A stretch of DNA of 64,000 nt from Proteobacteria bacterium CAG:495 (GCA_000432275.1 HF995314.1:42313-106312), one strand, 5' to 3'. Counted from the stretch's first letter, positions 2,544 to 54,582 are shown. Program-made: numbers and translations. Notes: generated by a model not told the origin, from the sequence alone.

Positions 2544-3425
2544 ATGATTATAGCAAAAAAAATTACAACTATTAGGAGTTTATTTTACTTACTGGCGGCG
2601 GCTCAAGAGGGCAGCTACACTAGGGCTGCGGCAAAATTGTCAACACATCAGCCGGCTCTTTCCAAAGCGATAAAAGAACTTGAAATTTATACGGGATGCA
2701 AGCTGTTAAACCGGGTTGCACACGGCGTTGTTCTCACCGAATCCGGAAAACGACTCTGCGAAAGTGCCAACAAGATTAACGAAGTTTTGCATTACATTGA
2801 CAATTTTGCTTCCGACATCCAGCAGGTTTCGGGGAGCATCACGTTGTGGACGACGGACGGCTTCGGAGGTTTTTGCCTGCCGATAAACCTTAAGGAATTT
2901 TATAAAAACCATCCGAATATCTCCATTAACATCATCTGCTCCAACGAAGTTCCCAATATAGAGAAAGGCGAAGTCGACGTCGGCGTGGTTTACGAAGAGC
3001 CGGTTTCCAGCAACTCCTGCATCATTTCGCAGCACACAATGAAATTTGGCCTGTGCGCTTCCAAAGAATTTGTAAGCCTCAACGGCATGCCCGAAAACCT
3101 TGACGATTTGAGCAAAAACTTCAGTCTTTGCGACCGAGTCAATTATCAAACGGTCTGGCCGGAATGGAAAAACATTATAAAGAAAGCCAAGAACGTTAAG
3201 GTTCAGACCAATTCATCAGCCGTTTTCGTTCGTATGACCAAAGAAGGCGTCGGAATTTCACTTCAGCCTAAAATCGTCATTAAGGCAGAAAACGATTTGG
3301 TGCCGATTCTTCCGGAATTTGAACTTTGTCATGATTTTTGGATTATCAGCCATATCGGAAACAAAGACATTCCCAAGGTCCGTTCCCTGATTGACTACAT
3401 CAAACATATCAACGAACAAATTTAA
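2544..3425 (+). CDS. LysR-family transcriptional regulator
   Basis: N-terminal LysR HTH (LAAAQEGSYTRAAAKLSTHQPALSKAIKELE) and a 293-aa substrate-binding-domain architecture. Divergent from the GNAT gene in the classic LysR arrangement. Confidence 0.85.
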   Translation: MIIAKKITTIRSLFYLLAAAQEGSYTRAAAKLSTHQPALSKAIKELEIYTGCKLLNRVAHGVVLTESGKRLCESANKINEVLHYIDNFASDIQQVSGSITLWTTDGFGGFCLPINLKEFYKNHPNISINIICSNEVPNIEKGEVDVGVVYEEPVSSNSCIISQHTMKFGLCASKEFVSLNGMPENLDDLSKNFSLCDRVNYQTVWPEWKNIIKKAKNVKVQTNSSAVFVRMTKEGVGISLQPKIVIKAENDLVPILPEFELCHDFWIISHIGNKDIPKVRSLIDYIKHINEQI

Positions 3426-5380
3426 CGGTTGTTTTGAGCTTTGCCGTGCAGAGTGAAAACTTCCGCCTCAGGGTTATGTTTTGAGGTGAAATCGAGGCCT
3501 TTGCCTGCGGCCTGAGCGGCCAGCTTATAGAAATTGGCCCGCTCGGGATAAGTGCGGCGCTGCTCTTCCTGATGGCGCCGGCCGACAAGGCAGCTGGCGG
3601 TTTTATATTGACTCATATTCTGCAACTCTTTCAACAGGCTCCCCGAAAAAAGCCGGTTGATGCGCCGCTGCCGTTGTTCGCGAATAAGGCGGTAGGCTTT
3701 GTTTCGGCTTTCGCCCGGACCATAAATTGAAGACACCACCTTTCGATTATACGCGGCAATTCTGCCGTAATGCTTCATCAGCCCCATTATTATGCCGGTT
3801 TGGCGATTACAGACTTCGGCATAGGCAAATTCCATACAAGGCGCTTCTGCAACCTTTTGAGCAAAGGCCTCGAAACCGGCGGCATCATACCGGCGGTCCG
3901 GATTATGGGTAAGCTCGGCAAAACGGAGTATTTGTTTGAAATACGGCTTTTTATAAGCTTCAACCTGCCGTTCGTAATCCATATCGCTCAAAAAACGGGA
4001 CGTTATGCGCGAGGTCCATCCCAGATGGCTGAGCAACGAGGGCTCAATGCCTATGCGGCGGCTGCTCATAGCTTCTTCAACATAATCATTGACGGTTTTC
4101 AAATATTTTTCCAACCGGGAGCCGTTGACAAAAGGACTCTGCGCCACCTCCTCGGCCAGCACATTGACCGTTTCAATATTGGTCAACGGAGGCTTGTCGG
4201 TTTCTGGAACAGTATTAATCCGTAGCCGGCGCAAAACGGAAATTGCGCTTTCAGAATGCTTTTCGTCACCATGCCGGGGAAGCTGCCGGTCATAAAGCTC
4301 CAAATTCATCAGCAGACCGTCATCAAGGTTGTAGTCCAGCCCCCGAATCGCCTCCCGCAGTTTTTCCTTGGCCCGGCGGTGATGCTCGGGGATATCTTTC
4401 GCGGTGTCGTAATAGTCAACCATGGCGGCAATCAACTTATCGGTTCCGCAGCGCTGGTCATGGATACAGTCCCGCAGCGCCCCGAAAGTTCCGGAAAGGG
4501 TCAGACCGTCCCGGCGGTTGGTTTCGAAAACTTTAAAATCAGCGGTGGCAAACTCCTGTGAAACCAACAACATTTCATTAACCAGCGCCGGCGTGATTCT
4601 TGACGTTTTTGCACGATAATTGAAATCTCCGATGCCGTATTCAAACGGGTACATTCCCCACATATTTTCCTTTACAGAGAAAACCGGATTAATCTTGGCC
4701 TGAGGAATTACATTGCGAAGCAAGCCTTTCAGGAAGTCGTCGTTTAGGCGCCCGGGATCTCTGGTATAATTATCAAAACCGTCCAACAAGGCATAAAGCG
4801 TCTTACAATCGGTAATGTCATCGGCAACCGCCGCAGACATAAAACGAAGACAAAAAGCATCCCGCAGCGGCGTTGATTGGGAACGTCCGTAAATCCCGCG
4901 TATCACTTTGCTTTTTGACGAATAATCCCCCGCCGGCGCCTCTATTTTCTGAAACAGCATGGCATTCGTTTGAAAAAACTGCTCAGGAGTAATTTTCAAA
5001 CGCGCAGCTTTCATTTTCTTATAAAAATTGCTGATATTCAGAAAATCGTTGCCATAGAGATATTTATCCTCTTCGGAAATGGAAAATTGAGCATATATGC
5101 GGGAATACGCCGCCAACTCCGGCAAATCCGCCGGTGCCTGACGCAAAATGTCGCGATAAACGGAAAAACCGTCTATGCCGAAACGGGATTCCGGCATTTT
5201 GCTCATAAACAGCTTTTTGTAACCGAGGTTGTGCAGAATTTCCGCCACCTGGGCGGCCGCCGTCCCGGCATCAAACTCTTTTTCGGGAAAACGGAGCCGC
5301 AAAGCATTTGCGGTTTCTTCAAACAAACCGTTTTGCTGCCATTTTTTCAGATAAACAGGTATCCGCACCATCTTAACCAT
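3422..5380 (-). CDS. hypothetical protein, 652 aa, no recognisable domain
   Basis: Long uninterrupted ORF with no signal peptide. Convergent with the LysR gene (4-nt stop overlap) and divergent from the flagellar operon promoter region. Confidence 0.6.
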   Translation of the reverse strand: MVKMVRIPVYLKKWQQNGLFEETANALRLRFPEKEFDAGTAAAQVAEILHNLGYKKLFMSKMPESRFGIDGFSVYRDILRQAPADLPELAAYSRIYAQFSISEEDKYLYGNDFLNISNFYKKMKAARLKITPEQFFQTNAMLFQKIEAPAGDYSSKSKVIRGIYGRSQSTPLRDAFCLRFMSAAVADDITDCKTLYALLDGFDNYTRDPGRLNDDFLKGLLRNVIPQAKINPVFSVKENMWGMYPFEYGIGDFNYRAKTSRITPALVNEMLLVSQEFATADFKVFETNRRDGLTLSGTFGALRDCIHDQRCGTDKLIAAMVDYYDTAKDIPEHHRRAKEKLREAIRGLDYNLDDGLLMNLELYDRQLPRHGDEKHSESAISVLRRLRINTVPETDKPPLTNIETVNVLAEEVAQSPFVNGSRLEKYLKTVNDYVEEAMSSRRIGIEPSLLSHLGWTSRITSRFLSDMDYERQVEAYKKPYFKQILRFAELTHNPDRRYDAAGFEAFAQKVAEAPCMEFAYAEVCNRQTGIIMGLMKHYGRIAAYNRKVVSSIYGPGESRNKAYRLIREQRQRRINRLFSGSLLKELQNMSQYKTASCLVGRRHQEEQRRTYPERANFYKLAAQAAGKGLDFTSKHNPEAEVFTLHGKAQNNR

Positions 5381-9657: not shown

Positions 9658-11565
9658 ATGGTTAGAGTTCCTACTTACGCAAGTTATATGTCGCTGCTGA
9701 ATCAGACGATGAACACCAAGTCCATGCTTGATTTATACAGCTATCAGTCTAATACCGGTATCAAGTCTCCCACTTATGCCGGTTTCGGGATGAGTGCGTA
9801 CAGCATTGTCAGTCTGGAAGCTTCATTGAAAGTCACCAGCAATTTTATGGAAAACAACAAAATTTTAAATACCGAGCTGGAAACGATGAATACGGCGATG
9901 GAATCCGTGTCAAAATCAGTCAGCGACTTTAAAAGTATGCTGAACTCTTTTTCCGGTATGGATTTGGAATCGCTGACTCCGGATTACACCGGCGGCGAAA
10001 TCAGCTTTACCAGCAACGATGACGTTTATCTGGGCAAGACCCTGACCCTTGACGGCATACAGTATACCTTTGCCGACAACGGAAACGGAAACAACATTGA
10101 CATTTCCGGTCTGACACCGGGAAGCGACACTTATGCCCAAGACGTTATGGACGCTCTGAAAGACAAAGTCGGAGCCACCAATCCTGACTTTAAATTTGAA
10201 GACAACAAGTTCAGTTTTCCGTTGTATACGGTGAACGGTTCATCTTCAGTTCTGAACAGCGAAGGCGTTAAAACCGGTGAACCGCATACGATGAGCCAGG
10301 ATCAGTATCAAAGCCTGCAGCAGCTGCAACGCCAAGCTTTTGCCACAATGTTGCAACTGGCTGACAGCCTTAACGTTTCGGCAAACGGAAAATATCTGTT
10401 CGGCGGCGGAGAAGCTTCTGAAGCTCCGGTCAGTTTTCCGTTCACCACACTGGAGGAATTTCAGCAATATTACGACGGGATGAACATCAAGTACCCGACC
10501 AACAGTGCCGCAAACCTGACCAGCCGGGAAACCACCGCCGAAAATACCGGCTCGCTGACCATTCAGAAAACCGAAGGCAATCAGGGAACAATCACCGCAG
10601 AAAAAACCGGCGGATTTCTGACCGAGGTTTTGACGTCCAATGCCGAAAATGCGGGAACCCTCACTTTCAATCAAGACGCCAACACCATTAATGCAACGCA
10701 ATACGGCGCTTTTAATACATTAAAGGCGGGTGACACGCTGGTTCTCGGAAATACCGGAGCCAACAACGGCGCTTATGTCATCAAATCAATTTCCGCCGAC
10801 GGCAAAACCATTACGCTGGAAGACAGCACCCCGCTGAAAGCCGACGAGACAGCCGGAGACGGCGTAAAATTCAGTACGTCGTACCCAATCGGTTCCGTGA
10901 TTGAAATGGACGGGTTTGACAAGAACATCGCTACTCAGGTTCAGGTTACCGGAATCAGTGATGACGGAACCACCCTTTACATTACGGCGGACCCCAACCG
11001 TCTGCCGGAAACGGCAACAACGGTTCAGGCATCCAGCAAGTGGAGCATGAGTTCGGAATCATATTATAAGGGCGGCAATCTGACATCAGAACGGCGAATT
11101 TCGAACAATCAATCGATTACAATGGACATTACCGCCAACAATCCGGCCTTTGAAAAGCTGTTTCGCGCGCTCGGACAGATTGCGCAGGGCAATGTTGTCG
11201 ATACCCGTAATCCGGCTGACGATTTTGACGGACTTATCAATGACCAGAACCCGGTTGACATTGTCGACGAAGCCGTCAAGCTCATTCAGGATGCTGTTTA
11301 CAGCGGCGGCAACACTACCGGCGAACTCAATCCAGATTTGTATACGGTAACGGCCAAAATAAGTTCTAACGCCGTTTTGCTGAAAACCAGCGACAGTAAT
11401 TTAAAGTTGGTTGAAAACAATCTGGAAAGCAGCGTAAGCGATTTGAAAAACGTAGACCAGACCGAAGCAGCCGTAAAAGCTTTGATGGCATTGAACAATT
11501 TGAACGCTTCTTATCAGATGCTCAACAGTATTTTGAATACTTCGCTCCTGAACTACTTGAAGTAA
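9658..11565 (+). CDS. flgL: flagellar hook-associated protein 3 FlgL (long form, 635 aa)
   Basis: Follows flgK. Flagellin-like N-terminal helix and C-terminal helix (ALMALNNLNASYQMLNSILNTS) with a long variable central insert. Confidence 0.75.
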   Translation: MVRVPTYASYMSLLNQTMNTKSMLDLYSYQSNTGIKSPTYAGFGMSAYSIVSLEASLKVTSNFMENNKILNTELETMNTAMESVSKSVSDFKSMLNSFSGMDLESLTPDYTGGEISFTSNDDVYLGKTLTLDGIQYTFADNGNGNNIDISGLTPGSDTYAQDVMDALKDKVGATNPDFKFEDNKFSFPLYTVNGSSSVLNSEGVKTGEPHTMSQDQYQSLQQLQRQAFATMLQLADSLNVSANGKYLFGGGEASEAPVSFPFTTLEEFQQYYDGMNIKYPTNSAANLTSRETTAENTGSLTIQKTEGNQGTITAEKTGGFLTEVLTSNAENAGTLTFNQDANTINATQYGAFNTLKAGDTLVLGNTGANNGAYVIKSISADGKTITLEDSTPLKADETAGDGVKFSTSYPIGSVIEMDGFDKNIATQVQVTGISDDGTTLYITADPNRLPETATTVQASSKWSMSSESYYKGGNLTSERRISNNQSITMDITANNPAFEKLFRALGQIAQGNVVDTRNPADDFDGLINDQNPVDIVDEAVKLIQDAVYSGGNTTGELNPDLYTVTAKISSNAVLLKTSDSNLKLVENNLESSVSDLKNVDQTEAAVKALMALNNLNASYQMLNSILNTSLLNYLK

Positions 11566-11588
11566 GACAAAGGGCTGACTACTTATAA

Positions 11589-11615
11589 AAGGAGGATTTT
11601 GTCCTCCTTTTTTTG
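11589..11615 (+). terminator. rho-independent terminator after flgL
   Basis: GGAGGA / TCCTCC stem followed by a T7 run. Confidence 0.6.
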
Positions 11616-11676: not shown

Positions 11677-14600
11677 TTACAGGCACTTGATATATTGCCA
11701 ATTGGTCGAGGTTGAGGTTTTGCAAACCAGAGCCGTCGTATTCGGACAAGAGGACGACGAGTAGCTCGGACCGTCACATTTACAATATTTTCCGTAAGTG
11801 ACGTTGGTCTCTTTATCTACGCAGACATCACTTTCATCCAGCCCCAGAATTGATCCGCAGGATGCCGGCGTAAATGTCGGATCGCTTCCGGATACCGGTT
11901 TGGAACGTTCAGAACAGACAATGTTCCCGGAGGCGCCTGCAACCTCAGAAGTATTGATATTTTTGCAGGTTGCGTCGGTTTTGTTATAAGCTGTGGGACA
12001 ACGGCAAACCTTATAACGGGTTTCAGTCGCGCCTCCGGCAAATTCAAAGGTTTTGCCATCGCTGAGTTCATTGGGTTCCGGACAATTTTCGCGGGTATAT
12101 TTCCAGGTACTTTCAATGTCAGCTTTGGGATACAGACAGGCATATTTTGTCGGCTGGTCGCATCCGGGACTGCAAGTGCTGTAGTTTTTGGGATGACCGC
12201 ATTGTCCGACAATAGCCGAAAGACTGGCAATGCTGTATGACGAACAGTCTGCCGGAACACACGGCTCCGGTTCCGGCTCGGGACAAGAGCCTGCAACATA
12301 TTTGGTCGACTTGGAGCCGTCGGCATTAATCGACGTGCAGGAATCCGCACCGGGCTGAATATTGGAGGTACAGGTTACCGTATATGAGCTGCCGCACAGA
12401 CAAGCCTTATAGCGTGTGACAGACTCTCCGTCGACCGTCGTCGTACAGCCGTTGGATAATGTATATTTGGCCGCATTGTTGGCGTCGTCTCCGTCATCGG
12501 TTCCGTCGCATTTGTACTTATAGGCTTCACCGCAACCGCAGCTTTTGTACTTTTGAGTCTGAACCTTCTGATTTCCGACATATTTTATCTCGGTGCAAAC
12601 CTCGCTCTTATCCGTGGGAATAGCTCCGGTTTCGGCACAGGTTTTAGAATACTCGTCTCCGCAGACGCAGGATTTGTAATAAGTTACGGTATCACCATCG
12701 GCATTGGTGGTTTGGCAGGCGTCATCTTCTGACCCCGGAGACTGGCCGTTGCCGTCACAAGTTTCGGAATACTGACTGCCGCATTCGCATTTGGAATAGA
12801 CGGTCTCCCCGCTTTCTCCCGTTGCCAGCAGCGGCGTACAGGGCGTACCCTTGACGTTTTTGGCGGGACATTGCAGATAATTTGCCGGGCATTTGCATTC
12901 CTTGAAAAGTTTGCTGCCGTTTTCGTCAATGCAGAAATCCTCACCCAGAGCGTCGGCCTGATAGCCGGAGCAGACATATTTATAGCCGTTGGCCTTGCAA
13001 TCTTTCGTATCCTGACATTCGGCGTATTTGGTGGTACCGTCCGAACTGGTACAGCTGCGCCCCATGCCCACCTGCTGTTTGGTACAGGTTTTGTAAATGC
13101 TTTCTTCGTCTTCGGTACAGGTATTTTCACCGGTACAGGCACTGTAAACCGTACCTCGTTCATTATCTACGCAGGTAGTGGCATTTTCGGCCGGAGAAGT
13201 TGAACTGCAACTGGTGTAGTTGGCCGGACAACGGCATTTATACATCATCTGATTGTCTTCTCCGAGGCACGGATCATATTTTTCCTGATTAGCGGCGCAA
13301 GCCTTTTGATGCTGATCGCTGCAGGCTGCCGCAGGTTTGGTACAGGACTGATAATAGGACACGCCGTCGACAACACAGGCCGAACCAACGCCGGTTTCAC
13401 CGTCTCCGCAGACTTTGTTATAGCCGGAGGCGCAGGTACAGCTTTCAAAATAAATCTTGTCGTTTTTGGTGCAGGGGTTAACGCCAACCTGCAAGGGATC
13501 GTTACAAGTCAGGTATTCGCCTTTGATGCACTCGCTTTGGGCTTTGCAGCTTTCATAGTAGTTTTCGCCGTTCAGAGAACAGGGCTTGCCCTCGCCAACC
13601 TGATTGGAAGAACATTTGCTCCAGCCGTCAGGACACTTACAGCTTTTATAGGCATAAATTTCACCCTGGTTATCCTGACAGGGGTCTACGCCTATCTGGA
13701 AATCGCCCTTGCATTGCTCGGTGTGCTGCCAGGTACACTGGCTGGCTTCACACTGGTAGTATTTTCCGCCGCAGCCGTTAGGTTTGGTGACGCCGGTCGG
13801 CTTGGCTCCGCCGGGACAGCCGTAATAATTGTCAACCCAGTTTTCCGGCAGTTCGTCTTTTTTGCATTCGCAGGCCTGATATTTGCCGTTGCAGGGTTCG
13901 CCAACGCCGACATACCGTTCTCCGTCGCAAACCTGATTGTAGTCTTCGGAACATTCACAGTAAGCGAAGAACTTCAGGCTGGTGACGCCGGCGGGAATGG
14001 TTCCGTCATTGTTTTCCGACGTAACCTCCTGCTCGCAGCCGCCGCCGTTTAACAGTCCGGCACAATTGTAGCGGTGATATTTATAGGCGGAATGACATTT
14101 GCACTCTTTATAGTAGCGTTTGCCGTTAATAACAATGCTGCCGCCGCCGAGAATGTGTCTGACCGGGCAGTTGTCGTCGGTCCACTTATATTCGCCGGGG
14201 TTAAAGTAGCAGTTAAAGCGGCGGATGTCGGGATCGTTGCGGTCTTCACACAAACGGGCTTCGGCACCGTCGCCGAGCTTCTGGCGGCATTCGCTTTCGC
14301 TCTTGGTTACAATAACCTGATAACCGTTGGTGTTGTCACCATCCTGATAACACTTTTCAAAGCTTCCGACTTTGCACATTCCCGTCTTATATTGCTTATC
14401 CGGGCTGGGATTGCTTGAAGCGTCGTATTTTCCGGCATAGCAGTATTTTTCGCCGCTCGGTTCTACCTGCGGATAGCGGCAAACTTCGCTGTAGACGGAA
14501 GTATCGCAGCTGCATTCATAATACGAAGTCGTTTCGTTGTCCTTGGTACAGGCTATTGCCGTTGCCGCGGTTCCCAACAATGTCTGGCAGGCGCCTTCAG

Positions 14601-16557
14601 AAGTTGCCAGAACGGCGCCCTCATTACATTTGCGCGCTTTACAAGACTGATAGTAGGTTATGCCGTCCACGGAACAAGCCGGGTGTTCGGCATCTACAAC
14701 CGGAGACAGATTATCTTCGCTGTCACAGGTCAGACGGCTGTCATAGGCGGAAGGACAATAACATTTATTGCGAATGACATGGTTGTCGCTGCATTGTTCA
14801 TAAACGGCACCCTGCCCCAGCTCCCACTGGCAGGCGCGATTATCGGAGATATCGTCTTCCATAATCGTGCCGTTGGACGACCCGCTGCTCGGCAACAGGC
14901 TGCACTTGGGATAACAATACTGATACTTGGTTTTGGCATAGGTTTCGCCCTCAAGCTGGCACATAAAACCGGTGCCTTCCTTATTGGCGGCGGCACACTG
15001 GGAATCAGTCAGATAGCTGGCCGGGCAATCGCAATAATAACGAACGTTCTCTTCCAAGGCCTGTCCGTTGGCATAACAGGTTTTGACATTAATTCCCTTA
15101 ACCCCGTCAAACGAGCAGGCATCTTCCGTGTAAAACAACGGGCGGTCCGCAGGACATCCCTCTTCATAGCTTTTAAACTTGGCATCGCCGTCATAAGTAC
15201 AAACTTCTCCGACACCGACTGCGGTATCAGAAGGAACTGCAGTGTAAGTGGAAGGACATCCGCATTCATAACGAACCTGCCCGTTGGTAACGCATACGGT
15301 TGTCGTTGCAGCATCTTCGCCTACTTTCGGACAACCGTCGGCAGTATCTACAACAGGACGGGCTGCCGTGTTAATACGACAATTTTTAGCGCAGGTTTCA
15401 TAATAGGTTTTACCCTGTTCCTGAACCTTACAACTGTCTCCGCCGCCGGCTTCGCCCTCGCCGCAGACTGAAAACGTATTGGGGCATTCGCACATATATT
15501 TGATTGTGGCAGGTTCGTCAGCCATATAGCACTGGGTTGCCGTAGTTGCGGTACCGCCCACCGTCTGACATTCAGCCATACTGTCCACCAATACCATATT
15601 TTCGTCACACTGAATAGCGCTGCGATTCAGCATACAGGCGGCATATTTTTCGCCACCGTCAAAAGTACAGGCCTGACCACCGCCCAAATTTCCGGGACAA
15701 ACGGTATAGTTTTCCGGACAGCTGCAACGATAACGCAGGCTTTGATCCGGCATAACGCACAAGACGGCATTCGGGGTATCAAAACTGTTTACCTTACATT
15801 CATCAATATTGGATTTAACGCTGCCGGCGGCAATATCCTCCTGAGAACAAGGTGCCGCGCAGATGTTTTTAACAATTCCGTCATAGTTGCAGGTGCTGAC
15901 GGCCGTCTGACCCGCGGGGCAGGCTCCTTCGGTATAATCCAAATCGGTAGGACAACTGCAGCTGTAAGAAGCCTTTTCGGCAAATTCTTCGGTAAAGCAC
16001 AAACCAGAATCAACGATGTTGTCTACAATTTTGCTGCAGGCTCCGGCTTCGTTCAACAACACAAAGTCCGAAGAGCATTCGGCATCTTCACTGGAAGTGT
16101 CGTTACCCTTGAAGCTACAGCACTGAGTTGCCGCGGCAGAGCAATCAGAGACTTTTTTCTTATTGTCATCGGCACAATAATCATAGGTATAAGAAAGCGG
16201 CGTTCCCTCGCTGCACAGCCCGGTCGCCTCATCGGTGATGAAAGTTCCCAGTCCCAGACAGCTGCTGTTAATTACAGCTCCCGAACTTTTGAACTGACAG
16301 CACATCTGAGTATCATTGCCGCATTTGTTTTTAAGCATAAAACTGTCGGCACAGTAATACGAAGCGTCTTCCTGACAGGTTCCGTCGGCGTTTACCTTGA
16401 ACGGTTCGTCAATACAGTCATATTTTGAACCATCCTTTTGGCGACAGCACTCTCGCCCGATAACATAACGGTTGTAATCATCACCGCTCTCGTTATCGGC
16501 AGCCAAAGGAGTTGCTTCGACCGCCCACGGAGAAATCGGGGGACTGATGCGCGACAA
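11677..16557 (-). CDS. giant Cys-rich repeat protein, C-terminal 1,626-aa fragment (frame open upstream to 16611; listed start is TTG inside a duplication)
   Basis: About 1 in 10 residues is Cys by eye. About 20 copies of the Y-x2-C-x-C-[PG]-x2-Y-x3-C module. No signal peptide of its own. Confidence 0.7.
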   Translation of the reverse strand: MSRISPPISPWAVEATPLAADNESGDDYNRYVIGRECCRQKDGSKYDCIDEPFKVNADGTCQEDASYYCADSFMLKNKCGNDTQMCCQFKSSGAVINSSCLGLGTFITDEATGLCSEGTPLSYTYDYCADDNKKKVSDCSAAATQCCSFKGNDTSSEDAECSSDFVLLNEAGACSKIVDNIVDSGLCFTEEFAEKASYSCSCPTDLDYTEGACPAGQTAVSTCNYDGIVKNICAAPCSQEDIAAGSVKSNIDECKVNSFDTPNAVLCVMPDQSLRYRCSCPENYTVCPGNLGGGQACTFDGGEKYAACMLNRSAIQCDENMVLVDSMAECQTVGGTATTATQCYMADEPATIKYMCECPNTFSVCGEGEAGGGDSCKVQEQGKTYYETCAKNCRINTAARPVVDTADGCPKVGEDAATTTVCVTNGQVRYECGCPSTYTAVPSDTAVGVGEVCTYDGDAKFKSYEEGCPADRPLFYTEDACSFDGVKGINVKTCYANGQALEENVRYYCDCPASYLTDSQCAAANKEGTGFMCQLEGETYAKTKYQYCYPKCSLLPSSGSSNGTIMEDDISDNRACQWELGQGAVYEQCSDNHVIRNKCYCPSAYDSRLTCDSEDNLSPVVDAEHPACSVDGITYYQSCKARKCNEGAVLATSEGACQTLLGTAATAIACTKDNETTSYYECSCDTSVYSEVCRYPQVEPSGEKYCYAGKYDASSNPSPDKQYKTGMCKVGSFEKCYQDGDNTNGYQVIVTKSESECRQKLGDGAEARLCEDRNDPDIRRFNCYFNPGEYKWTDDNCPVRHILGGGSIVINGKRYYKECKCHSAYKYHRYNCAGLLNGGGCEQEVTSENNDGTIPAGVTSLKFFAYCECSEDYNQVCDGERYVGVGEPCNGKYQACECKKDELPENWVDNYYGCPGGAKPTGVTKPNGCGGKYYQCEASQCTWQHTEQCKGDFQIGVDPCQDNQGEIYAYKSCKCPDGWSKCSSNQVGEGKPCSLNGENYYESCKAQSECIKGEYLTCNDPLQVGVNPCTKNDKIYFESCTCASGYNKVCGDGETGVGSACVVDGVSYYQSCTKPAAACSDQHQKACAANQEKYDPCLGEDNQMMYKCRCPANYTSCSSTSPAENATTCVDNERGTVYSACTGENTCTEDEESIYKTCTKQQVGMGRSCTSSDGTTKYAECQDTKDCKANGYKYVCSGYQADALGEDFCIDENGSKLFKECKCPANYLQCPAKNVKGTPCTPLLATGESGETVYSKCECGSQYSETCDGNGQSPGSEDDACQTTNADGDTVTYYKSCVCGDEYSKTCAETGAIPTDKSEVCTEIKYVGNQKVQTQKYKSCGCGEAYKYKCDGTDDGDDANNAAKYTLSNGCTTTVDGESVTRYKACLCGSSYTVTCTSNIQPGADSCTSINADGSKSTKYVAGSCPEPEPEPCVPADCSSYSIASLSAIVGQCGHPKNYSTCSPGCDQPTKYACLYPKADIESTWKYTRENCPEPNELSDGKTFEFAGGATETRYKVCRCPTAYNKTDATCKNINTSEVAGASGNIVCSERSKPVSGSDPTFTPASCGSILGLDESDVCVDKETNVTYGKYCKCDGPSYSSSSCPNTTALVCKTSTSTNWQYIKCL

Positions 16558-17848
16558 CGCCCATCGGGGTACTGATGCGCGACAACGCCTGGTTCGTTTC
16601 CTCCAACTCGGTCAAACATAAATGATAACTGCCGCGGACCGTCTTATCTCCGGCACATTCAGGCAGGCAAAGCTGATATTTGACATCAAGAGTGCGGGCC
16701 GAATTGCAGGTCCGTCCTCCGGCAACATATCCGACCGGGCAATCGCTCCGGCTTACGTAAGCGTCTTCTCCGTCCGCCGTTTGCGGGCAGCCGCAGTACT
16801 GAACCAACCGGTTATCGGAAATTACGCTTCCCTCAAGGACGCAGGTGTTCAGAACATCTCCGGCCATTTCACAGCTGTCGGTGCCTTCGGTTACCCGCGA
16901 CGGGCATTTGAGCTGGCAATATTCATAACGCCCCTGAGCTTCATCAATCAATGTCGCCTGTCCGTTTCGGTATGCGCCGTTCCAAATGCAGGCGCCGTTG
17001 AGCGCCGCTACGGCATAATCCGTTCCCTTAGCCGTTTTGCAGGAGGCTTCCGTATAGGGATAAACCTCTTCGTCGCATGCATATATCGTGCGCAGCTTAC
17101 GAGTGCCGTTGTTCATATTCTCGTAGCAGGAGCCGGCAACTTTGGTTCCCGCGAGCAATGCGGAAGTAGCCGGCGTGTCGTCGCCGAGGGTTTTGTTCAG
17201 TTGCTCCGAAGTACAGGCCGCATAATCACATTTCCAGAGCAAGGCTCCGTTCAGGGAACAACTCAATGCCGTTTTGCCGTCAGCGCAGGCCGGGCGTGAC
17301 GTTTCAGTATAAGAACTGTCGCACTGAAAATACAAATAGGGCGTATCATTACTGCTGCATCGACCGGCCTCGACACCCAAATTGTTGTCTACGTTGGTAT
17401 ACTTCTGAGCAATTGCCGATATTGAGCGGGAAATGGACACGCTGTCAGAGCCGGACACGGCCTCCCCCGTTCCGATGCCGCCGGTACAGGTTTCAAGATA
17501 GGTACAGGTTCCCTTGCTGCCGTCATCACAAAGCGTGTAGCTGACCTTATCGGTATCGACGCCCAAAGCCGTGGCGCAAAGGTTTTTGGCCGCAGCCTCG
17601 CCTCCTTCGGCAGAGATGGTTACCGGGCCGCAGGCAGGGAGATTGGCCCCTTCGTATGTTGACGTATGAGAAGTGTCTTCGTCGTCGGACGTACCGGCAC
17701 TGCCTGCAGAACCGGAGCTTCCGGCATTTTTGACGCTGAAGTTGCTGTTAAACGGAGTGTCCGCAATCGGCGTTACCGCCGCCAAAGCCAGTTCCGCCGC
17801 AGCAAAAAGTGACACTAAAACGAGGAGAATCTTCTTCATTTTCAACAT
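16493..17848 (-). CDS. giant Cys-rich repeat protein, N-terminal 451-aa fragment with signal peptide
   Basis: N-terminus MLKMKKILLVLVSLFAAAELALA (Sec signal), a GSSGSAGSAG linker, and a Cys-rich body containing YCGCPQT. The C-terminus runs into the 28-bp duplication. Confidence 0.7.
   Translation of the reverse strand: MLKMKKILLVLVSLFAAAELALAAVTPIADTPFNSNFSVKNAGSSGSAGSAGTSDDEDTSHTSTYEGANLPACGPVTISAEGGEAAAKNLCATALGVDTDKVSYTLCDDGSKGTCTYLETCTGGIGTGEAVSGSDSVSISRSISAIAQKYTNVDNNLGVEAGRCSSNDTPYLYFQCDSSYTETSRPACADGKTALSCSLNGALLWKCDYAACTSEQLNKTLGDDTPATSALLAGTKVAGSCYENMNNGTRKLRTIYACDEEVYPYTEASCKTAKGTDYAVAALNGACIWNGAYRNGQATLIDEAQGRYEYCQLKCPSRVTEGTDSCEMAGDVLNTCVLEGSVISDNRLVQYCGCPQTADGEDAYVSRSDCPVGYVAGGRTCNSARTLDVKYQLCLPECAGDKTVRGSYHLCLTELEETNQALSRISTPMGVVAHQSPDFSVGGRSNSFGCR
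16534..16589. repeat. 28-bp tandem direct duplication (2 mismatches) at the junction of the two Cys-rich ORFs
   Basis: Copy at 16534-16561 is aatcgggggactgatgcgcgacaacgcc. Copy at 16562-16589 is catcggggtactgatgcgcgacaacgcc. Period 28 = 3n+1. Confidence 0.85.
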
Positions 17849-18007: not shown

Positions 18008-18046
18008 AATAAAAAGCCCCTCGAAACGAGAGGCTTTTTTTATTTG
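18008..18046. terminator. weak bidirectional terminator-like hairpin 3' of the RND permease gene
   Basis: GCCCCTCG / CGAGAGGC imperfect stem flanked by A-run and T-run. Confidence 0.35.
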
Positions 18047-18048
18047 GC

Positions 18049-21000
18049 TTATTTGCCTTCCGGGTAGTTTCCGTAGGCTTTTTCCCGCCAGGTCTGGAAC
18101 AGGATATAAAGCAGAGGAATCACTATCAGTCCGGCAATGGTACCCAGCATCATTCCGTAGAATACGGGCACGCCGATGGCAATACGGCTGGATGCGCCGG
18201 CACCGGTAGCCACAATCATGGGCAAAACACCCAGGATGAACGTGAATGCAGTCATCAAAACGGCACGAAAACGTTCTTTGGTACCGATTACCGCAGCTTT
18301 AATAATGCTGCTGCCGCGTTCGTGTTCCTCCTTGGAGAACTCAACCACCAAAATAGCGTTCTTGGCAGCCAAGCCAACCAGCAGGATAAGACCCAGCTGA
18401 GCATAAATGCTCAACGGCAGACCGGTTATGAACAAACCGAGCAGTGCACCGAGCATCGCCACGGAAACCGAAGTCAAAACCGGAAGCGGCGTAGACCAGC
18501 TTTCATACTGGGCAACCAGGAACAGATAAGCAAACGTCATTGCCAAGGCAATCAAATAACCGATTTGACCGCCGCTGGATTTTTCCTGATAGCTCATACC
18601 GGACCAATCGTAGCTGAAGCCTTCGGGCAGCTTCTGAGACAACGTCTCCAATGCCCCCATGGCCTGACCGGTACTGGAAGCCGGGTTTTGTACTGCCGTC
18701 ACGGTAGCGCTGGGATACTGGTTGTAGCGGGTAACAACACGCGGAGCCAAAACCTTGCGGAGGCTGACCAGGGCATCAAGCGGCACCATTTCGCCGTTCT
18801 GGTTTTGAACATGGAGCTTTTTGAGACTTTCGATATCCTTACGATATTTCCAGTCAGCCTGAATCATTACCTTGTTAACCTGGGTACCGAAGTTAACGTC
18901 GTTGACATAGCTGGAACCCAGATAATTTTGCAGCACGCTGTAAATACTGCCGATGGAAACTTTCATCGCTTCGGCTTTTTCACGGTCGATGTCGATGTAA
19001 AAGTTCGGCGTTTGTGCCGTATACGTGGTATAGGCATACATAATATTAGGATCCTGATTAATCAGCATCAAAATATTGTTTAAGGCAGCTTCAATTTTTT
19101 GCGGGTTGTCCGTATTCAGAGACTGCAGACGATAATCCATACCGCCGCTCATACCAAGACCCATAATTGCCGGCGGTTCAAACAACTGAATATCGGCTTC
19201 CGGCATACCGATAAGTTTGGCACGAATCCGGTTTAAGATATTGGTTGAATACAGTTCGTCACCGGGACGCTGGTTCCAAGGCTTTAGGGTAATAATACCC
19301 ATTGCAACGTTCTCGCCGCTGCCGCCAATCATACTGTGGCCGATAATTCCCATAACGTTATCAACGCCGGCCTCCTCCTTAAGCAGCGGATAAATCTTGT
19401 CCATAAACTGCTGCGTACGCATACGGCTGGCACCTTCGGGAAGCTGGACGTTCATAAAGATAACGCCCTGATCCTCGGAAGGAATGAATGACGTCTGACT
19501 GATGTGCAGCAAACCGCCCACACCGGCAAACAGCAATACCATTAACAGGAAAATGACACTTACCTTGCGGCCCACAAAACCGACGACGGAAGCATATTTA
19601 TCGCGACTTTTGTTGACAATACGGTTAAACCAGAACAACGGTCCCGACTGGGCCGGTTTCAGCGGACGCAGCAATGTTGCGCACAATGCCGGCGACAACG
19701 TCAACGCGTTCAGGGCGGAAAATGCCACCGACGTAGAAATCGCAATTGCAAACTGCTGATAAATCTTACCGGTAATACCGCCGAGAAAGCCGACCGGCAC
19801 AAAGATGGCCAACAGAACCAACGTGGTTGCGACAATAGCGCTGGAAACCTGTTCCATAGCCTTAATCGTCGCCTCTTTCGGCGAAAGCTTTTCATACTCC
19901 ATCAAATACAAAACGCGTTCGACCACCACAATCGCGTCGTCCACCACCAGACCGATGGCCAACACCAAACCGAACAGCGTCAGCATATTCAGGCTGAAGC
20001 CCAGAGCCAGCATTACGGCAAACGTCGCAAACAACGACACCGGAATGGTCAGGGTCGGAATAAGGGTTGAGCGCCAGTCCTGCAAAAAGACATAACAAAC
20101 CAAAATAACCAAAGCAAACGTCAAAACCAACGTGAAAATAACTTCTTCGATGGAAGCTTTAATATATTCGGTAGAGTCATAGCCGACGGTATAAATCATA
20201 TCTTCGGGGAAGCGCTGAGACAGACGTTCAATCTCGGCTTTAACGCCGTTCATGGCGTCCAGTGCGTTTGCACCGGCCAACTGGTTGATTGCAATCGCAA
20301 CGTTGGGAGCGCCGTTGAATTTGGAAGTCGCATCATAACTTTCTTCACCAATTTCCACCCGGGCGATATCTTTCAGGTAAACAAGACCGCCCTGCTCGGC
20401 AGTGCGAACGATAATATTCTGAAAGTCCTCGACTTCATTAATACGACCCTGCGTCTGCAACGTGTAGACCATTTGCTGGGTTCCGTCGCCGGGCATAGCG
20501 CCGACGCTGCCCAGAGAAGGCTGATAGTTCTGCCCTTCAATGGCGGACTTAATCGTATCGACAGGTATATTCAGAGCGGTAATTTTGTCAGCGTCAAGCC
20601 AAACGCGCATACTTAACCGGGAAGAATAAACGTTGACTTCGCCAACGCCGGCCACACGGCTCAAACTGTCCTTGACGTTGTTTTGAACGTAGTCGGCCAG
20701 CTGTAACTGAGAATATGTGCCTTTGGGCGAAATAATGCTGATAAAGCCCAACATATTTGAAGAACGGCTTTTAACCGTCAATCCCTGGCGGGTAACCTCC
20801 GTCGGAAGTTTGGACTGAGCCTGCTGGATACGGTTTTGAACCTTAACCTGAGCCATATCGCGGTCCACACCGACTTTAAAGGTAACGGTCAGAGAATAAC
20901 TGGAGTTCTCCGAAGAAGAACTCATGTAAAGCATATCTTCAACACCGTTGATTTCCTCTTCCAGAGGGATACCGATTGTCTTTGCCACAACCTCAGCGCT

Positions 21001-21159
21001 GGCGCCGGGATAAGATGCGGAAACCACAACTTCCGGCGGCGTGATTTCGGGATAAAGAGAAATCGGCAGCGAGAAAACAGAGATAATACCGGCCAGCGTC
21101 AACACGATGGAAATAACCATCGCAAAACGCGGGCGCTCAATAAAAATGCGTGAAAACAT
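18049..21159 (-). CDS. RND multidrug efflux permease (AcrB/HAE1 family)
   Basis: 1,036 aa with 12-TM and two large periplasmic loops, typical of AcrB. Conserved N-terminus [24 protein letters not shown]. Confidence 0.92.
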
Positions 21160-21162
21160 GGA

Positions 21163-22413
21163 TTATTCTACCTCCGCGGTTTCAGTATCTGCATCATCAG
21201 CCGGAGACTGGACGTCCTCTTTCAGCGAATCAGCAACAATAACACGATTTTCGGCTTTTTCGTTTTTAATCTCGCCGACTTTTACCTTCTGGCCGTTGGT
21301 GACTTTTTGCAGACCTTGGATAATTACACGGTCATCAGCCGTCAGACCATCGGTAACGACCTGCTTGTCCTCGATAATATCACCAAGCAGAACGCGTCTT
21401 TCCTCGGCAATGTCTTCGTCGTTGACAACCATAACGTAGTTGCCGTGCTCGTCCTGGGCAATAGCTCCCTGCGGAACCAATACCGCCAGCTGCGGATCTT
21501 TCTTGCCGACGCGGATGTCAACATAGTTTCCGGGGATGAGCAGATTGCGTTCATTGCTGTACTCGGCATAGATTGCAATAGTTGCAGTATCCGAATTGAT
21601 TTCGTTGTCCGTAAAGCGGGACTTCAAATGATTGACCAAAATTTTGCCGTTGGGAAGCACCAGTTCCGTGCGGATGGGAGAAGAATCCGCACCGTTTTTG
21701 TACATCTCGCGCATATTCAACATATCTTTATCAGAAACGGAAAACGACACGCGAATCGGGTCGGTCTGAACGATGCGCGCAAGATTTTGCGTTGTTGAAT
21801 TGACGTAGTTTCCTTCGGTAACCAGAGCCTTACCGATGTAACCGGTAATCGGCGCCTTGATTTCGGTATAGTCCAAATCTATTTTTGCCAAATCGAGATT
21901 AGCCTCGGCCTGGGCAACCGCGGCCTTGGCCTGGAGATAGTTGCTTTCCGAAGTATCGAGCGTTGCCTTGGAAGCATAATTCTGACTGCTCAGGGACTTC
22001 TGGCGCTTATAATCACGCTCGGCACGAACCAGATTAGCCTTGGCGCTGGCCAGTTCCGCCTGGCGCAGCTCTACATTTGCGATATAGCGTTTTTGTTCTA
22101 TGATAAAGAGGATATCTCCTTCGTTTACCAGAGAACCTTCCTGAAACAGAACCTTTTCGACATAACCGGTAACCTGCGGTTTGAGGTTAACACTCTTGAT
22201 GGCTTCAACATGGCCGATATAAGAGGTGGCCGGAGAAATATTGCGGGTTTCAAGCTTCTGAACCAAAACATAAGGTTCGCCGGCTCCCATACCGCCCATC
22301 GGTGCCGATGACGGCGTTAACTTGCTTTTCAGAAACCATCCGAAAGCAACACATAAAACCAAAATAACAATCTGTCGAATAATGACGCGATTTTTAATTT
22401 TTCCTATAATCAT
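21163..22413 (-). CDS. RND efflux membrane fusion protein (AcrA-like periplasmic adaptor)
   Basis: 416 aa with lipoyl/hairpin/beta-barrel MFP organisation, directly upstream of the RND permease. Confidence 0.9.
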   Translation of the reverse strand: MIIGKIKNRVIIRQIVILVLCVAFGWFLKSKLTPSSAPMGGMGAGEPYVLVQKLETRNISPATSYIGHVEAIKSVNLKPQVTGYVEKVLFQEGSLVNEGDILFIIEQKRYIANVELRQAELASAKANLVRAERDYKRQKSLSSQNYASKATLDTSESNYLQAKAAVAQAEANLDLAKIDLDYTEIKAPITGYIGKALVTEGNYVNSTTQNLARIVQTDPIRVSFSVSDKDMLNMREMYKNGADSSPIRTELVLPNGKILVNHLKSRFTDNEINSDTATIAIYAEYSNERNLLIPGNYVDIRVGKKDPQLAVLVPQGAIAQDEHGNYVMVVNDEDIAEERRVLLGDIIEDKQVVTDGLTADDRVIIQGLQKVTNGQKVKVGEIKNEKAENRVIVADSLKEDVQSPADDADTETAEVE

Positions 22414-31894: not shown

Positions 31895-31980
31895 TGGTAG
31901 GGGTAGTCAGACTCGAACTGACACGGCCTGAGGCCACAAGATTTTGAGTCTAGCGCGTCTACCAGTTCCGCCATACCCCC
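31895..31980 (-). tRNA. tRNA-Leu (anticodon CAA), class II with long variable arm
   Basis: Manual fold: acceptor GGGGGTA/TACCCCT, anticodon loop CUCAAAA, variable arm GGCC/GGCC hairpin, T-arm GTCAG-TTCGAGT-CTGAC. The 3' end is CCA. D-arm nearly identical to E. coli tRNA-Leu. Confidence 0.9.
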
Positions 31981-35458: not shown

Positions 35459-35923
35459 ATGAATAAAAAACTGCTGCTGACATTTATGGCCTGCGCCCTG
35501 AGTTCCTGCACTTACTTTCAAAAAGGCGCCGGGCAGGTCGTATATCACTGGGAAAAACCGCATACCGGCGTAGAAAAGTTTTCGCGGGATCATGCCGAGT
35601 GCCTGATGGCGGCAAAGGAATTCAAATTAATGCCGGACTTCCGCTCCTGGTTTTACACCGAAGAGACTAAACTCGACACCCGTGCCGACTGGAAGTCATC
35701 TAAGGGTATCTGGGCTTCTTACGTGCCCTACCCCGGCGCACAGCCGCTCATCGTAAACTCCCGTTATGACGACGACGACATCAGTCCCAAAAATTATCGT
35801 AAATGTATGCAAAGCAAAGGATACTGGGCAAGGGAGCACGACATCCCGGAAATTACCAACATCAACCTTTACAAAGCTCGTACGCCCTACTTGCGGCAGC
35901 CGTTCAGCTCACCCAATATCTGA
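35459..35923 (+). CDS. hypothetical lipoprotein
   Basis: Lipobox LSSC after an N-terminal signal. 154 aa, no known domain. Confidence 0.6.
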   Translation: MNKKLLLTFMACALSSCTYFQKGAGQVVYHWEKPHTGVEKFSRDHAECLMAAKEFKLMPDFRSWFYTEETKLDTRADWKSSKGIWASYVPYPGAQPLIVNSRYDDDDISPKNYRKCMQSKGYWAREHDIPEITNINLYKARTPYLRQPFSSPNI

Positions 35924-37329
35924 GGCAGAGTTTGGGGACAATAACCGCCGCCCACCGCTTTGTAAAAAGTGACGATGTTTTGATAAATTGCAGCATTGCT
36001 GGCTATCAGGGTGTTTTCGGATTCAAGGAGGTTTTGCTGCGAAGTCAGGACATCGCTGAAGTCTATCAACCCCTGTTTGTATTTTTCCAGCGTTAGCGAC
36101 GCGACTTCTTTCTGAGCCGTCACCGCTTCGTTTGAAGAACTGTTGCGTTCATATTCCTGCTCCAGCGCAACCACGGCATTGCGAATTTCCGCCGCAGCGT
36201 TCAGCAGCGCAGACTGGTACTGATACATTTTTTCACGCGTTGCAGATTTTTGCAATTCGACGTTTTCGCTTAGCTGTCCCCAATGGAACAAAGGAAGTCC
36301 GATTGCGGGCGAAATGCTGTACATATCATGCGAACTGCTTATCAGACTTGACAAGTTTCGAGACTGATAACCGAGAAAACCGCTGATGCTGACCGAGGGA
36401 AAAAGCTCTGCAATCGCCTGGCCGATTTTGGCATTCTGGGCAACAAGCTGCTGTTCGGTTATACGCACGTCGGGACGGTTACGGATGACCGATACGGGAA
36501 GGTTGTACAGCTGTTGAATATCATAATCAAAACGGCGGCGGACAAGATTGCGGGAAGCATCTTCGACATCGGCATTCAACTCTCCGGGCAATTTTCCGAC
36601 CAAAATGGCCAAAGCATTGCGGTAGGCCTCGAGTTGCGCCTTTAGCTGCGGAATGAGAGCCTGCGTCGTTTCAACAATGTAGCGCGATTGGTTCAAGGCG
36701 ACGTCATCAGCCAATCCGGCTTCGTTTTTGGCTTTTACCAGCTCATATATGTCTTGTTGCAGCTTGAGATTGCGTTCGGAAATACGCAGCTGTTCCTGAG
36801 CACGGCGCAGGTTAAAATAGTTATTGGCTATTTCCGCCGTCAGTGTCAGTTTGACGTTATCGAGGTTTGAGGCTGCCGCTCGCACCAAAGCCTGAGAACT
36901 TTCGGTCAACCTGCGGCCGCCGCCCCAAATGTCGAGTTCCCAGCTGGCATCCAATCCGGTCTGATAATAGTCAGTAGTAATCGGAACGCCGTAACTGACC
37001 GAATCTTTCACCTTATGATAACTGCCGTCAATATCGAGCATCGGAAAATTATTTACGGCATTAATACGCAAACTGTTGCGCGACTGGCGCAAATTTTCAA
37101 CCGCGGCAGAAACGTCAGGATTATGCTGTAACCCCTGAAGCACCATACGGTTCAGCAAAGTATCGTTAAACCGGCGATACCATTCGCGTTCTACCGGCTG
37201 CGCAACTTCATTCAACCGCAGGGACGCGCTAATCGCCTTGTCGGTATAGATTTCCGGTCGGCGGTAATCCGGGCCAAGGGTGCAAGACGACAGCAATGCC
37301 AAAGAAAACAGCGAAAAATATCTACGCAT
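35887..37329 (-). CDS. outer-membrane efflux lipoprotein (NodT/OprM OMF family)
   Basis: Start chosen at [16 protein letters not shown] (lipobox) with RBS AAAGGAGG. It overlaps the upstream RND stop by 8 nt (ATGCGTAG). Two OEP repeats are present. Confidence 0.85.
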
Positions 37330-40300: not shown

Positions 40301-40537
40301 CATATAAAGCATTCCCTCTACGCCGTTAATCTGGTTCTCAATCGGAACGGCGACGGTATCGACCAACACCTGAGCGTTTGAACCGGGATACGAGGTTTGC
40401 ACCACAATCTGCGGCGGCGTAATCTGCGGATACTGGGAGACCGGCAAAACGGCAATGGCAAGCAGTCCCAGCAAAATCATAACAATGGATATGACGCCGG
40501 CAAATCGCGGCTTATCGATAAAAAATTCCGAGAACAT
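37322..40537 (-). CDS. RND multidrug efflux permease (AcrB/HAE1 family), second copy
   Basis: 1,071 aa. N-terminus [24 protein letters not shown]. Paralogous to the 18049..21159 gene. Confidence 0.92.
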
Positions 40538-45908: not shown

Positions 45909-46011
45909 GTCCTTAGGGGTTAAGTTATGATTGACTCGTTTTGGTCGTTTTGATATACTGAAAGAGGAACAGCGGGTTCCGGTTTTCTTTTATTATCTGA
46001 GGACGACGGCC

Positions 46012-48975: not shown

Positions 48976-49067
48976 GCCTGTTTTTATTGCACTTTGTCAA
49001 AAACTATGATAGTGGCTTGATATCAAAATTATAGATATCTGAATTATTAATTTAAACTTCAAAAAAA

Positions 49068-54570: not shown

Positions 54571-54582
54571 GGCAGAGAAGAA

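Follow-up and report, generated by a model that had tools for sequence, protein, structure and literature searches.

What is encoded at 11677-17848 of a 64,000-nucleotide stretch of DNA from Proteobacteria bacterium CAG:495 (GCA_000432275.1, HF995314.1:42313-106312; hereafter the window, with positions counted from its first letter) was the question addressed here. An annotation made from the sequence alone (the original prediction) had placed a single giant, cysteine-rich, secreted protein in this region, built from about 20 copies of an undescribed module. On balance, the locus is best explained as probably encoding one giant protein of ~2,050 residues that is exported by the Sec pathway, is built as a disulfide ladder and is a probable surface stalk or adhesin.

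The coding sequence in the window is not one open reading frame (ORF), as had been predicted, but two, which overlap by 65 nt in frames one base apart:

16493..17848, minus strand, ORF 1: 451 residues from an ATG, comprising the part of the giant gene that encodes the signal peptide and the N-terminal Cys-rich region
11677..16557, minus strand, ORF 2: 1626 residues from a nominal TTG start, without a signal peptide, comprising the remainder of the giant gene
16534..16589, minus strand, imperfect 28-bp tandem duplication: two copies, 16589..16562 and 16561..16534

The break between the two frames is caused by the duplication, the copies of which agree at 26 of 28 positions when compared directly (96% matches according to Tandem Repeats Finder). 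ORF 1 ends after it in a 28-codon out-of-frame tail, and deletion of either copy in silico yielded a single ORF of 2047 residues with one stop. The duplication sits in a Cys-free, gap-rich and poorly conserved linker (residues about 420-440), the frame shifting after residue ~430. A protein search returned P0001 (2044 residues, 99% identity, starting at the second ATG, 17839), the representative of a cluster of 986 sequences whose listed full-length members encompass 2041-2047 residues. The single giant ORF is thus absent from the window and present as an intact gene in other assemblies. Only one copy of the 28-mer was found in all five other assemblies of the species, four of which are human-gut metagenome contigs. 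The exact duplication junction was absent from public metagenome contigs in a search in which a control pattern matched the four single-copy contigs, and additional mismatches and single-nucleotide polymorphisms (SNPs) relative to the five other assemblies cluster around the duplication. The single copy elsewhere and the clustered mismatches indicate that the break is private to this assembly; the window copy is either an inactive (off), genuine frameshift allele or an artefact in which strain haplotypes were joined in series by the assembler.

The chances were judged to be even that the locus is here just a pseudogene, or a pair of unrelated genes, and that postulating a giant protein reads too much into the sequence. 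This view accords with the two out-of-frame ORFs, with the nominal start and missing signal peptide of ORF 2 and with the finding that no protein on record is identical to its 1626 residues. It is opposed by the collinearity of both ORFs with the intact 2041-2047-residue proteins at 99% identity, by the exact restoration of the frame on removal of 28 bp, by the lack of further decay in either ORF and by the uninterrupted gene in five of five other assemblies and in the full-length proteins of 24 of 27 related loci, the other three running off contig ends. The SNPs between the copies and the mismatches nearby would also be expected from a metagenome assembler joining two haplotypes. A different truncated variant was seen in P0019 (475 residues, same species cluster), in which a frameshift follows RECCRQ at an A-run.

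Apart from the 28-bp duplication, no tandem DNA repeats were found in the gene. Copy-number variation through DNA repeats was rejected on these grounds, and the modules of the protein would therefore be old, with a copy number that is constant within the species. Long plus-strand ORFs are present in the codon-aligned antisense frame (13306..14052, 14683..15471, 15742..16428 and 16622..17299). These had been regarded as spurious products of codon bias, which was confirmed by the rarity of TTA, CTA and TCA among the sense codons (11 of 1627).

The restored protein contains 182 Cys in 2047 residues (8.9%, where about one residue in ten had been predicted) and 6.1% Tyr; Ser, Gly, Ala, Thr, Asp and Glu are abundant as well. 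The isoelectric point is 4.5 and the mature chain has a mass of 216 kDa. Two features mark its N terminus:

17777..17848, minus strand, Sec signal peptide MLKMKKILLVLVSLFAAAELALA with an A-x-A cleavage site, cleavage falling before AV
17747..17776, minus strand, conserved motif of the mature N terminus, AVTPIADTPF: the first ten residues past the signal-peptidase site

The sole hydrophobic stretch is N-terminal, the 19-residue Kyte-Doolittle maximum being 2.59 in the signal peptide and 1.09 elsewhere, which bears out the predicted Sec signal and absence of transmembrane segments. The motif following the signal peptide has the family consensus [AKRSG][VI]x[PSN][IL]x[DE][TY]x[FY] and, in the giant proteins, the form AVxPIxDTxF. 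It is common to the giant proteins and to small Cys-module relatives, including Lcl_C-bearing ones, and was seen at L029:6001-7338 and in proteins P0065-P0089; in the ~0.7 Mb of loci fetched it is confined to Cys-module proteins. From its position and distribution, it may be a sorting or anchoring signal without known counterpart. The C terminus of the giant proteins is unconserved across the family, and no anchor motif was found in the window protein.

All 17 instances of the module quoted in the original prediction were located in the translation, as was a C-P-E-P-E-P-E-P-C segment (residues 1846-1854), and the Cys-rich repeat is real. However, the strict pattern Y-x2-C-x-C-[PG]-x2-Y-x3-C matches only four times, and the figure of about 20 copies was corrected to ~45 four-Cys units, many of which end in C-x4-6-C and not in CxC. 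The pattern CxC[PG]xx[YFW] was observed 13 times against 0.17 expected, an enrichment of >70-fold (none of 2000 shuffles reached 13), and [YF]x1-2CxC[PGHAD]xx[YFW] was observed 14 times against 0.06 in shuffles; bare CxC (21 observed, 16.1 +/- 3.6 expected from shuffles) is not significant alone. Cutting the chain at CxC gave segments of 76-90 residues with 6-8 Cys in the first half, of 67-68 residues with 8 Cys in the centre and of 36-46 residues with 4 Cys at residues 1645-1809. The four-Cys unit, of ~30-45 residues, follows the scheme x2-Y-x2-3-C1, x3-5-G-x-G-x2-C2, x3-G-x2-Y-[YK]-x2-C3, x1-6-C4, and a hidden Markov model (HMM) of it detected 31 copies, 17 of them strong (independent E-value <1e-5). 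Usually, a unit ending in C-x3-6-C is followed by one ending in C-x-C, giving an eight-Cys di-unit of 66-80 residues, for which an HMM detected 11 copies spanning residues 629-1720. As this model covers both, the 77-residue and 67-residue repeats are the same thing. An alignment of 85 di-units displayed a clean eight-Cys consensus, the di-unit consensus being xxYxxC-x5-GxGxxC-x3-Gx2KYx2C-x3-C-x8-C-x12-C-x11-CxC, and the two halves of the di-unit align with each other (hhalign, probability 54%, E = 1.3e-4). Given the total of 182 Cys, the whole chain corresponds to ~45 four-Cys units, arranged as follows:

15937..17746, minus strand, variable N-terminal Cys-rich region (residues 35-628), not built from CxC di-units
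12661..15936, minus strand, array of 11 eight-Cys di-units (residues 629-1720), each consisting of two four-Cys beta-hairpin units
12889..13950, minus strand, best-conserved, nearly indel-free core (residues 1291-1644), 10 four-Cys units
13750..13851, minus strand, near-invariant block LPENWvDNYYGCPGGaKPTGVtKpNGCGGKYYQC (residues 1324-1357)
12283..12660, minus strand, single four-Cys units of the type ...YKSCxCG..Y..C (residues 1721-1846)
11680..12282, minus strand, variable C-terminal Cys-rich region (residues 1847-2047), including C-PEPEPEP-C (12259..12285)

The N-terminal ~600 and the last 200 residues are Cys-rich with other spacings, and the N-terminal region includes three CC-containing repeats of ~60 residues and the linker that bears the duplication. 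The near-invariant block can be recognised even in P0070 and P0071, which are distant relatives; it may bind a partner or serve as an anchor. A module at 13870..14160 (minus strand; residues about 1221-1252, RHILGGG...CKCHSAYKYHRYNC) has conserved Arg, His and Asn and is without one Cys pair; weak DUF3797 matches to it were obtained in five orthologues, and it may be a specialised site.

Across the orthologues, the near-invariant columns are almost exclusively Cys, the remaining sequence being 35-40% identical. Of 49 family proteins, whose mature chains show 26 distinct Cys counts between 86 and 246, 45 have an even count (binomial p = 4e-10, which is indicative, as the family members are related and the samples are not independent). 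Losses of Cys occur in pairs. The orthologues of L005 and L012 have other residues at C1396, which closes a CxC, and at C1414, the C2 of the unit that follows; the L014-L025 clade has other residues at C1078 and C1103 (C5 and C7); C1 and C3 of unit 857-932 are lacking in five orthologues; and unit 1216-1290 is without C2, the preceding unit being without its final Cys. The pair C688/C699, in a less well aligned region, breaks the i/i+2 scheme. Taken together, the even counts and the i/i+2 paired losses indicate a 1-3/2-4 disulfide ladder and support the disulfide stabilisation that had been predicted. We infer that the ladder is continuous and overlapping, with an exact map deduced in the same way, and each structural module would begin with the second Cys of a CxC and end with the first Cys of the CxC that follows.

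Models were calculated using AlphaFold2, with a 10-row orthologue alignment as input for the core and an 85-row alignment of paralogous di-units as input for one di-unit. The core (residues 1291-1644, 354 residues) was modelled as a string of short beta-hairpins that is nearly free of helix, at a mean predicted local distance difference test (pLDDT) of 71 and a predicted template-modelling score (pTM) of 0.38, and the di-unit as eight short strands in four hairpins (pLDDT 81.7, pTM 0.55). A low pTM beside a reasonable pLDDT is as expected for a beads-on-a-string rod. We are confident that the description of the protein as a modular disulfide ladder holds.

Searches against known families and structures did not place this module. 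No Pfam family was found for the whole ORFs, and only scattered chance-level matches were obtained with 8 segments at E<=10 and with 85 isolated di-units at E<=1. DUF3797 was matched in 5 of the 85 modules (best E = 0.0017, below the cut-off) and was judged spurious, and Zn_ribbon_TFIIS gave a weak match (E = 0.058). No NCBIfam family was returned for P0001 at E<=1, and PDB sequence searches with two profiles (A4, the core; A6, the di-unit) returned nothing. Foldseek against the PDB gave a best E of 0.17 for the 354-residue model, and with the di-unit model no match fell below E = 5. The top match, to a Chlamydomonas mastigoneme protein (E = 0.17, TM-score 0.07), is non-significant, the other weak matches being to the DLL4 EGF repeats, OPG, CD40, TNFR2, 4-1BB, HVEM, DR5, the EphA2 cysteine-rich domain, MSP1-19 and follistatin. 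Literature searches yielded no description of the giant protein or of its Cys module. With no confident match to an existing repeat in Pfam, NCBIfam or the PDB, the module stands as undescribed.

The resemblance to eukaryotic furin/TNFR-like repeats that had been remarked on extends to the building principle, as seen in the 1-3/2-4 ladder and the list of weak Foldseek matches, but not to family membership. TNFR cysteine-rich domains, the furin-like/EGFR CR1-CR2 regions and laminin-type EGF modules are likewise tandem beta-hairpin modules of ~30-45 residues with overlapping 1-3/2-4 disulfides that form an elongated rod, the rod and ladder of the giant protein being putative. Most of the weak Foldseek matches come from these families. 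The giant protein differs from all of these in showing no sequence or profile match, in its four-Cys unit with a signature of its own (Y-x2-C / GxGxxC / G-x2-YY-x2-C-x-C) and in its bacterial host. TNFR_c6 (PF00020), a domain of ~40 residues with 6 Cys and 3 disulfides, gave no Pfam match and stands against a unit of 4 Cys, and TNFR-family structures were matched by Foldseek at E>1 with TM-scores of ~0.1. The furin-like and growth-factor-receptor Cys-rich families (PF00757, PF14843) gave no Pfam match and no PDB sequence match with A4 or A6, and the combination that marks EGF and laminin-type EGF domains, six or eight Cys in 1-3, 2-4, 5-6 connectivity with a profile match, was not found in the giant protein. 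The Myxococcus cysteine-rich repeat family (TIGR02232/DUF4215) comprises bacterial, secreted, tandem repeats of disulfide type; the giant protein differs from it in Cys spacing and taxa, and P0001 matched no NCBIfam (E<=1) or Pfam family.

The distribution of the family was determined by a pattern scan of one genome per species across 185,579 species, which identified 27 loci with one gene per locus. All are in metagenome-assembled genomes, the labels of which read Alphaproteobacteria, Azospirillaceae or unclassified proteobacterium. Where a record title gives the source, it is the Hadza human gut, a catalogue of the mouse gut or roe-deer caecum, and the four further contigs of the window's own species are from human-gut metagenomes, in agreement with the host-associated restriction that the original prediction had raised. 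We conclude that the family occurs only in gut Alphaproteobacteria that are flagellated and uncultured. One intact ORF of 1985-2697 residues with a signal peptide is present in 24 loci; in three loci the ORF runs off the contig end, with 1933-2100 residues recovered, and one locus holds an 820-residue fragment at a contig end. An exhaustive HMMER search with the core profile against 1.84 billion representative proteins returned 43 proteins at E<=1e-3, including 22 at E<=1e-30: 20 of full size (1559-3014 residues), a 476-residue fragment and P0070 (1692 residues). Little was gained from a further profile search (A1) or from a search started with a distant member, as the word filter saturated. 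P0070-P0075, of 1,000-2,000 residues, form a second tier, P0071 lying within the same glgX-malQ-MFP-acrB neighbourhood, and proteins of 365-1,500 residues with a few copies of the Cys module form a third. No further module-bearing ORF was found in the window.

In P0070, P0076 and P0077 the Cys modules are joined to a C-terminal Lcl_C domain (DUF1566, PF07603; 28-31.5 bits, E 1e-6 to 1e-7, under the Pfam gathering score of 34.9 bits). In Lcl, the extracellular, glycosaminoglycan-binding collagen-like adhesin of Legionella, Lcl_C forms the head (PMC11162425). These relatives resemble Lcl in that a signal peptide is followed by a repetitive stalk and then, at the C terminus, by at least one Lcl_C-like domain, with Cys modules replacing the collagen repeats; by comparison, the window protein lacks both Lcl_C and a collagen-like GXY stalk. 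In P0070, P0076, P0077 and P0089 (loci L029-L033), a few Cys modules are fused to one or several Lcl_C-like domains with a WYLP..EL motif, and the organism that bears P0077 has ~40% GC, compared with 47.6% for the window.

Between the same genome pairs, AcrB is 75-88% identical, FlgK 58-70% and the giant protein 35-40%. Conservation is uneven along the chain: both ends are variable and gap-full, and the centre (residues 1200-1700) is conserved with few indels, peaking at residues 1300-1400.

The surroundings of the gene bear on its function. A tetR gene, an MFP gene and acrB precede it on the same strand in the window and at every locus with sufficient upstream flank (23 of the 27 genome loci together with L028, L036 and L037). 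Two hairpins delimit it:

18011..18040, minus strand, hairpin and T-run (AAAAAAGCCTCTCGTTTCGAGGGGCTTTTT) directly past the acrB stop codon, read by eye and unlisted in the consensus terminator scan
11587..11611, no strand assigned, palindromic hairpin flanked by A-runs and T-runs, between the convergent flgL-like and giant genes

The hairpin after acrB and the AT-rich gap of 160 bp that separates it from the giant gene make the latter look like its own transcription unit, and the hairpin at 11587..11611 is likely a bidirectional terminator of both convergent genes. Membership in the acrAB operon was rejected in view of the terminator-like hairpin, the AT-rich gap, the opposite-strand nitroreductase gene that intervenes between acrB and the giant gene in L034 and the unrelated context of P0070.

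Three other functions were weighed against a surface role. A disulfide-rich chain held between the membranes as a scaffold, spacer or redox/thiol buffer would explain the adjacency to an RND pump through an envelope function. Such a periplasmic protein would fit a Sec signal accompanied by no identifiable outer-membrane route or anchor, the periplasm being the site of disulfide formation, and a gene directly downstream of TetR-MFP-AcrB, a slot that is often held by an outer-membrane factor gene and is kept across species with AcrB only 75% identical. It is nevertheless unlikely, given the hairpin and gap after acrB, the interruption in L034 and the context of P0070, the rapid divergence of both ends and lengths of 1559-3014 residues, as are typical of exposed proteins, the adhesin-type (sub-threshold) Lcl_C head in distant relatives and a chain of ~45 modules, the length of which would greatly exceed the width of the periplasm. 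That the Cys hold Zn, Cu or Fe in metallothionein- or zinc-ribbon-like clusters for storage or detoxification was considered very improbable. The CxC motif is common in metallothioneins, Zn_ribbon_TFIIS was weakly matched, the unit at 1216-1260 has conserved His residues, an efflux pump is adjacent and the habitat is reducing; but the protein is exported by Sec, Cys amounts to 8.9% and not ~30%, Tyr (6.1%) and other aromatics are abundant, the models are of beta-hairpins, no metal-binding family was matched above cut-off, and the gain and loss of Cys in i/i+2 pairs with even counts is predicted by disulfides and not by four-ligand metal sites.

A sheath or hair on the flagellum, like the mastigonemes of eukaryotes, is suggested by the flagellar block that the giant gene adjoins in the closer species (flgI, flgJ, flgN, flgK and the flgL-like gene in the window) and by the identity of the top Foldseek match. 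The block, however, is convergent with the gene in the window and co-directional with it in L037, and no such block lies within 10 kb of it in L034, L032 or the L014-L025 clade; the TM-score of the mastigoneme match is 0.07. A flagellar link was rejected because the orientation and presence of the block vary, and we regard this function as barely credible.

For the preferred reading, in which the protein is a surface stalk or adhesin, the chances of that role taken by itself appear slightly below even. Following cleavage of the signal peptide, the chain would fold oxidatively outside the cytoplasm into ~45 four-Cys beta-hairpin modules, Cys i pairing with Cys i+2 to give ~91 disulfides in all. 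The ladder would form a stiff rod resisting proteases and bile, and this rod would act as a fibrillar stalk or adhesin, either exposed at the cell surface or shed from it. Contacts would be made by the variable ends (by the Lcl_C heads in relatives), and the conserved N-terminal motif and central block would serve in sorting, anchoring or assembly. The rod shape, surface location, adhesin role and role of the N-terminal motif are what we infer from the features described above. Of the extracellular rod or surface protein originally proposed, export is upheld by the Sec signal; the rod is putative, and no anchor, secretion system or binding domain was found to go with it.

Several observations weigh against a surface stalk. 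A secretion system, an outer-membrane anchor and a recognised binding domain were each sought in the window protein without success, and none was consistently found beside it; neither a secretion system nor a dsb gene was found in the 64-kb window, and the protein may reside in the periplasm. For a protein that depends on ~91 disulfides, the reducing conditions of the gut lumen are an unusual environment. The window copy may go unexpressed, the AlphaFold confidence is moderate, the parity test draws on related proteins, and the Lcl_C matches fall under the gathering score and are found in distant relatives only. A conserved centre with variable ends is compatible with a stalk-plus-tips model but is not proof of it.

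Fibrillar adhesins and periscope proteins are long secreted proteins dominated by tandem stalk-domain repeats (PMC8286594, PMC8201768). The giant protein resembles them in being very long, in its tandem small repeats, in its fast evolution and in a length that varies among species (1559-3014 residues); with 2047 residues and 11 di-units or ~45 units, it agrees with the definition of a fibrillar adhesin as a long protein with tandem stalk repeats, and no Pfam domain and no recognised adhesive domain, of the kind also called for, were found in the window protein (PMC8286594). As for the surface anchoring and extracellular location likewise expected of the class, a signal peptide was observed and no anchor motif. 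The giant protein differs in that known stalk domains (Ig-like, Rib, SHIRT, cadherin-like etc.) are Cys-free, its own putative stalk being a disulfide ladder, and in being without a known adhesive domain, without a cell-wall or outer-membrane anchor and without DNA-level repeats or within-species copy-number variation. Giant repetitive secreted proteins are thus a known kind in bacteria, and what is new is the eukaryote-style disulfide-ladder stalk domain. A more far-reaching proposal, which we put forward as doubtful, is that the module and the post-signal motif define an unrecognised class of bacterial surface fibrils, with a eukaryote-style disulfide-ladder stalk and a dedicated export or anchoring pathway, which would present variable tips, Lcl_C heads in some relatives, to host mucus or other cells while the near-invariant block would dock a conserved partner.

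The remaining genes of the window are ordinary chromosomal ones and include a murein ligase gene, glycogen genes, a second RND pump with an outer-membrane factor, ThrRS, a Bat-like operon and MltA. Downstream of flgK, a 635-residue protein (9658..11565, plus strand) of about twice the usual FlgL length gave no Pfam flagellin-domain match and NCBIfam flagellin/FlgL matches far under the cut-offs; it is probably FlgL. A 652-residue ORF without a Pfam family (3422..5380, minus strand) lies between a LysR regulator gene and flgI, and has the same position in L028. The two RND systems comprise TetR-MFP-AcrB (18049..22413, minus strand), which is without an outer-membrane factor gene, and HlyD-AcrB-OEP (35887..41727, minus strand), which has one. 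The Bat-like (aerotolerance) cluster (51776..56322, plus strand) consists of a VWA protein, a VWA and TPR protein and BatD, and is preceded by several ORFs without a Pfam match (45931..49835). A single tRNA gene (31898..31980, minus strand) is the sole Rfam match in the window.

Giant surface proteins of bacteria are normally built of Cys-free Ig-like stalk domains. If the present reading is true, a Gram-negative gut anaerobe would be building a stalk in a new way, as a ladder of ~90 disulfides composed of TNFR/EGF-like mini-modules, which would raise the questions of how such a chain is folded oxidatively and how a pre-folded rod of 216 kDa is exported across the outer membrane. A clean seed alignment for a new domain family is also provided. 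Among the genes seen here for this clade of gut Alphaproteobacteria, which is widespread but uncultured, the Cys-module family is nearly the sole large lineage-specific one; 986 sequences from public metagenomes belong to the species cluster alone. Its several-fold faster evolution than that of neighbouring genes makes the giant gene a plausible factor in interactions with host or phage and a useful strain marker.

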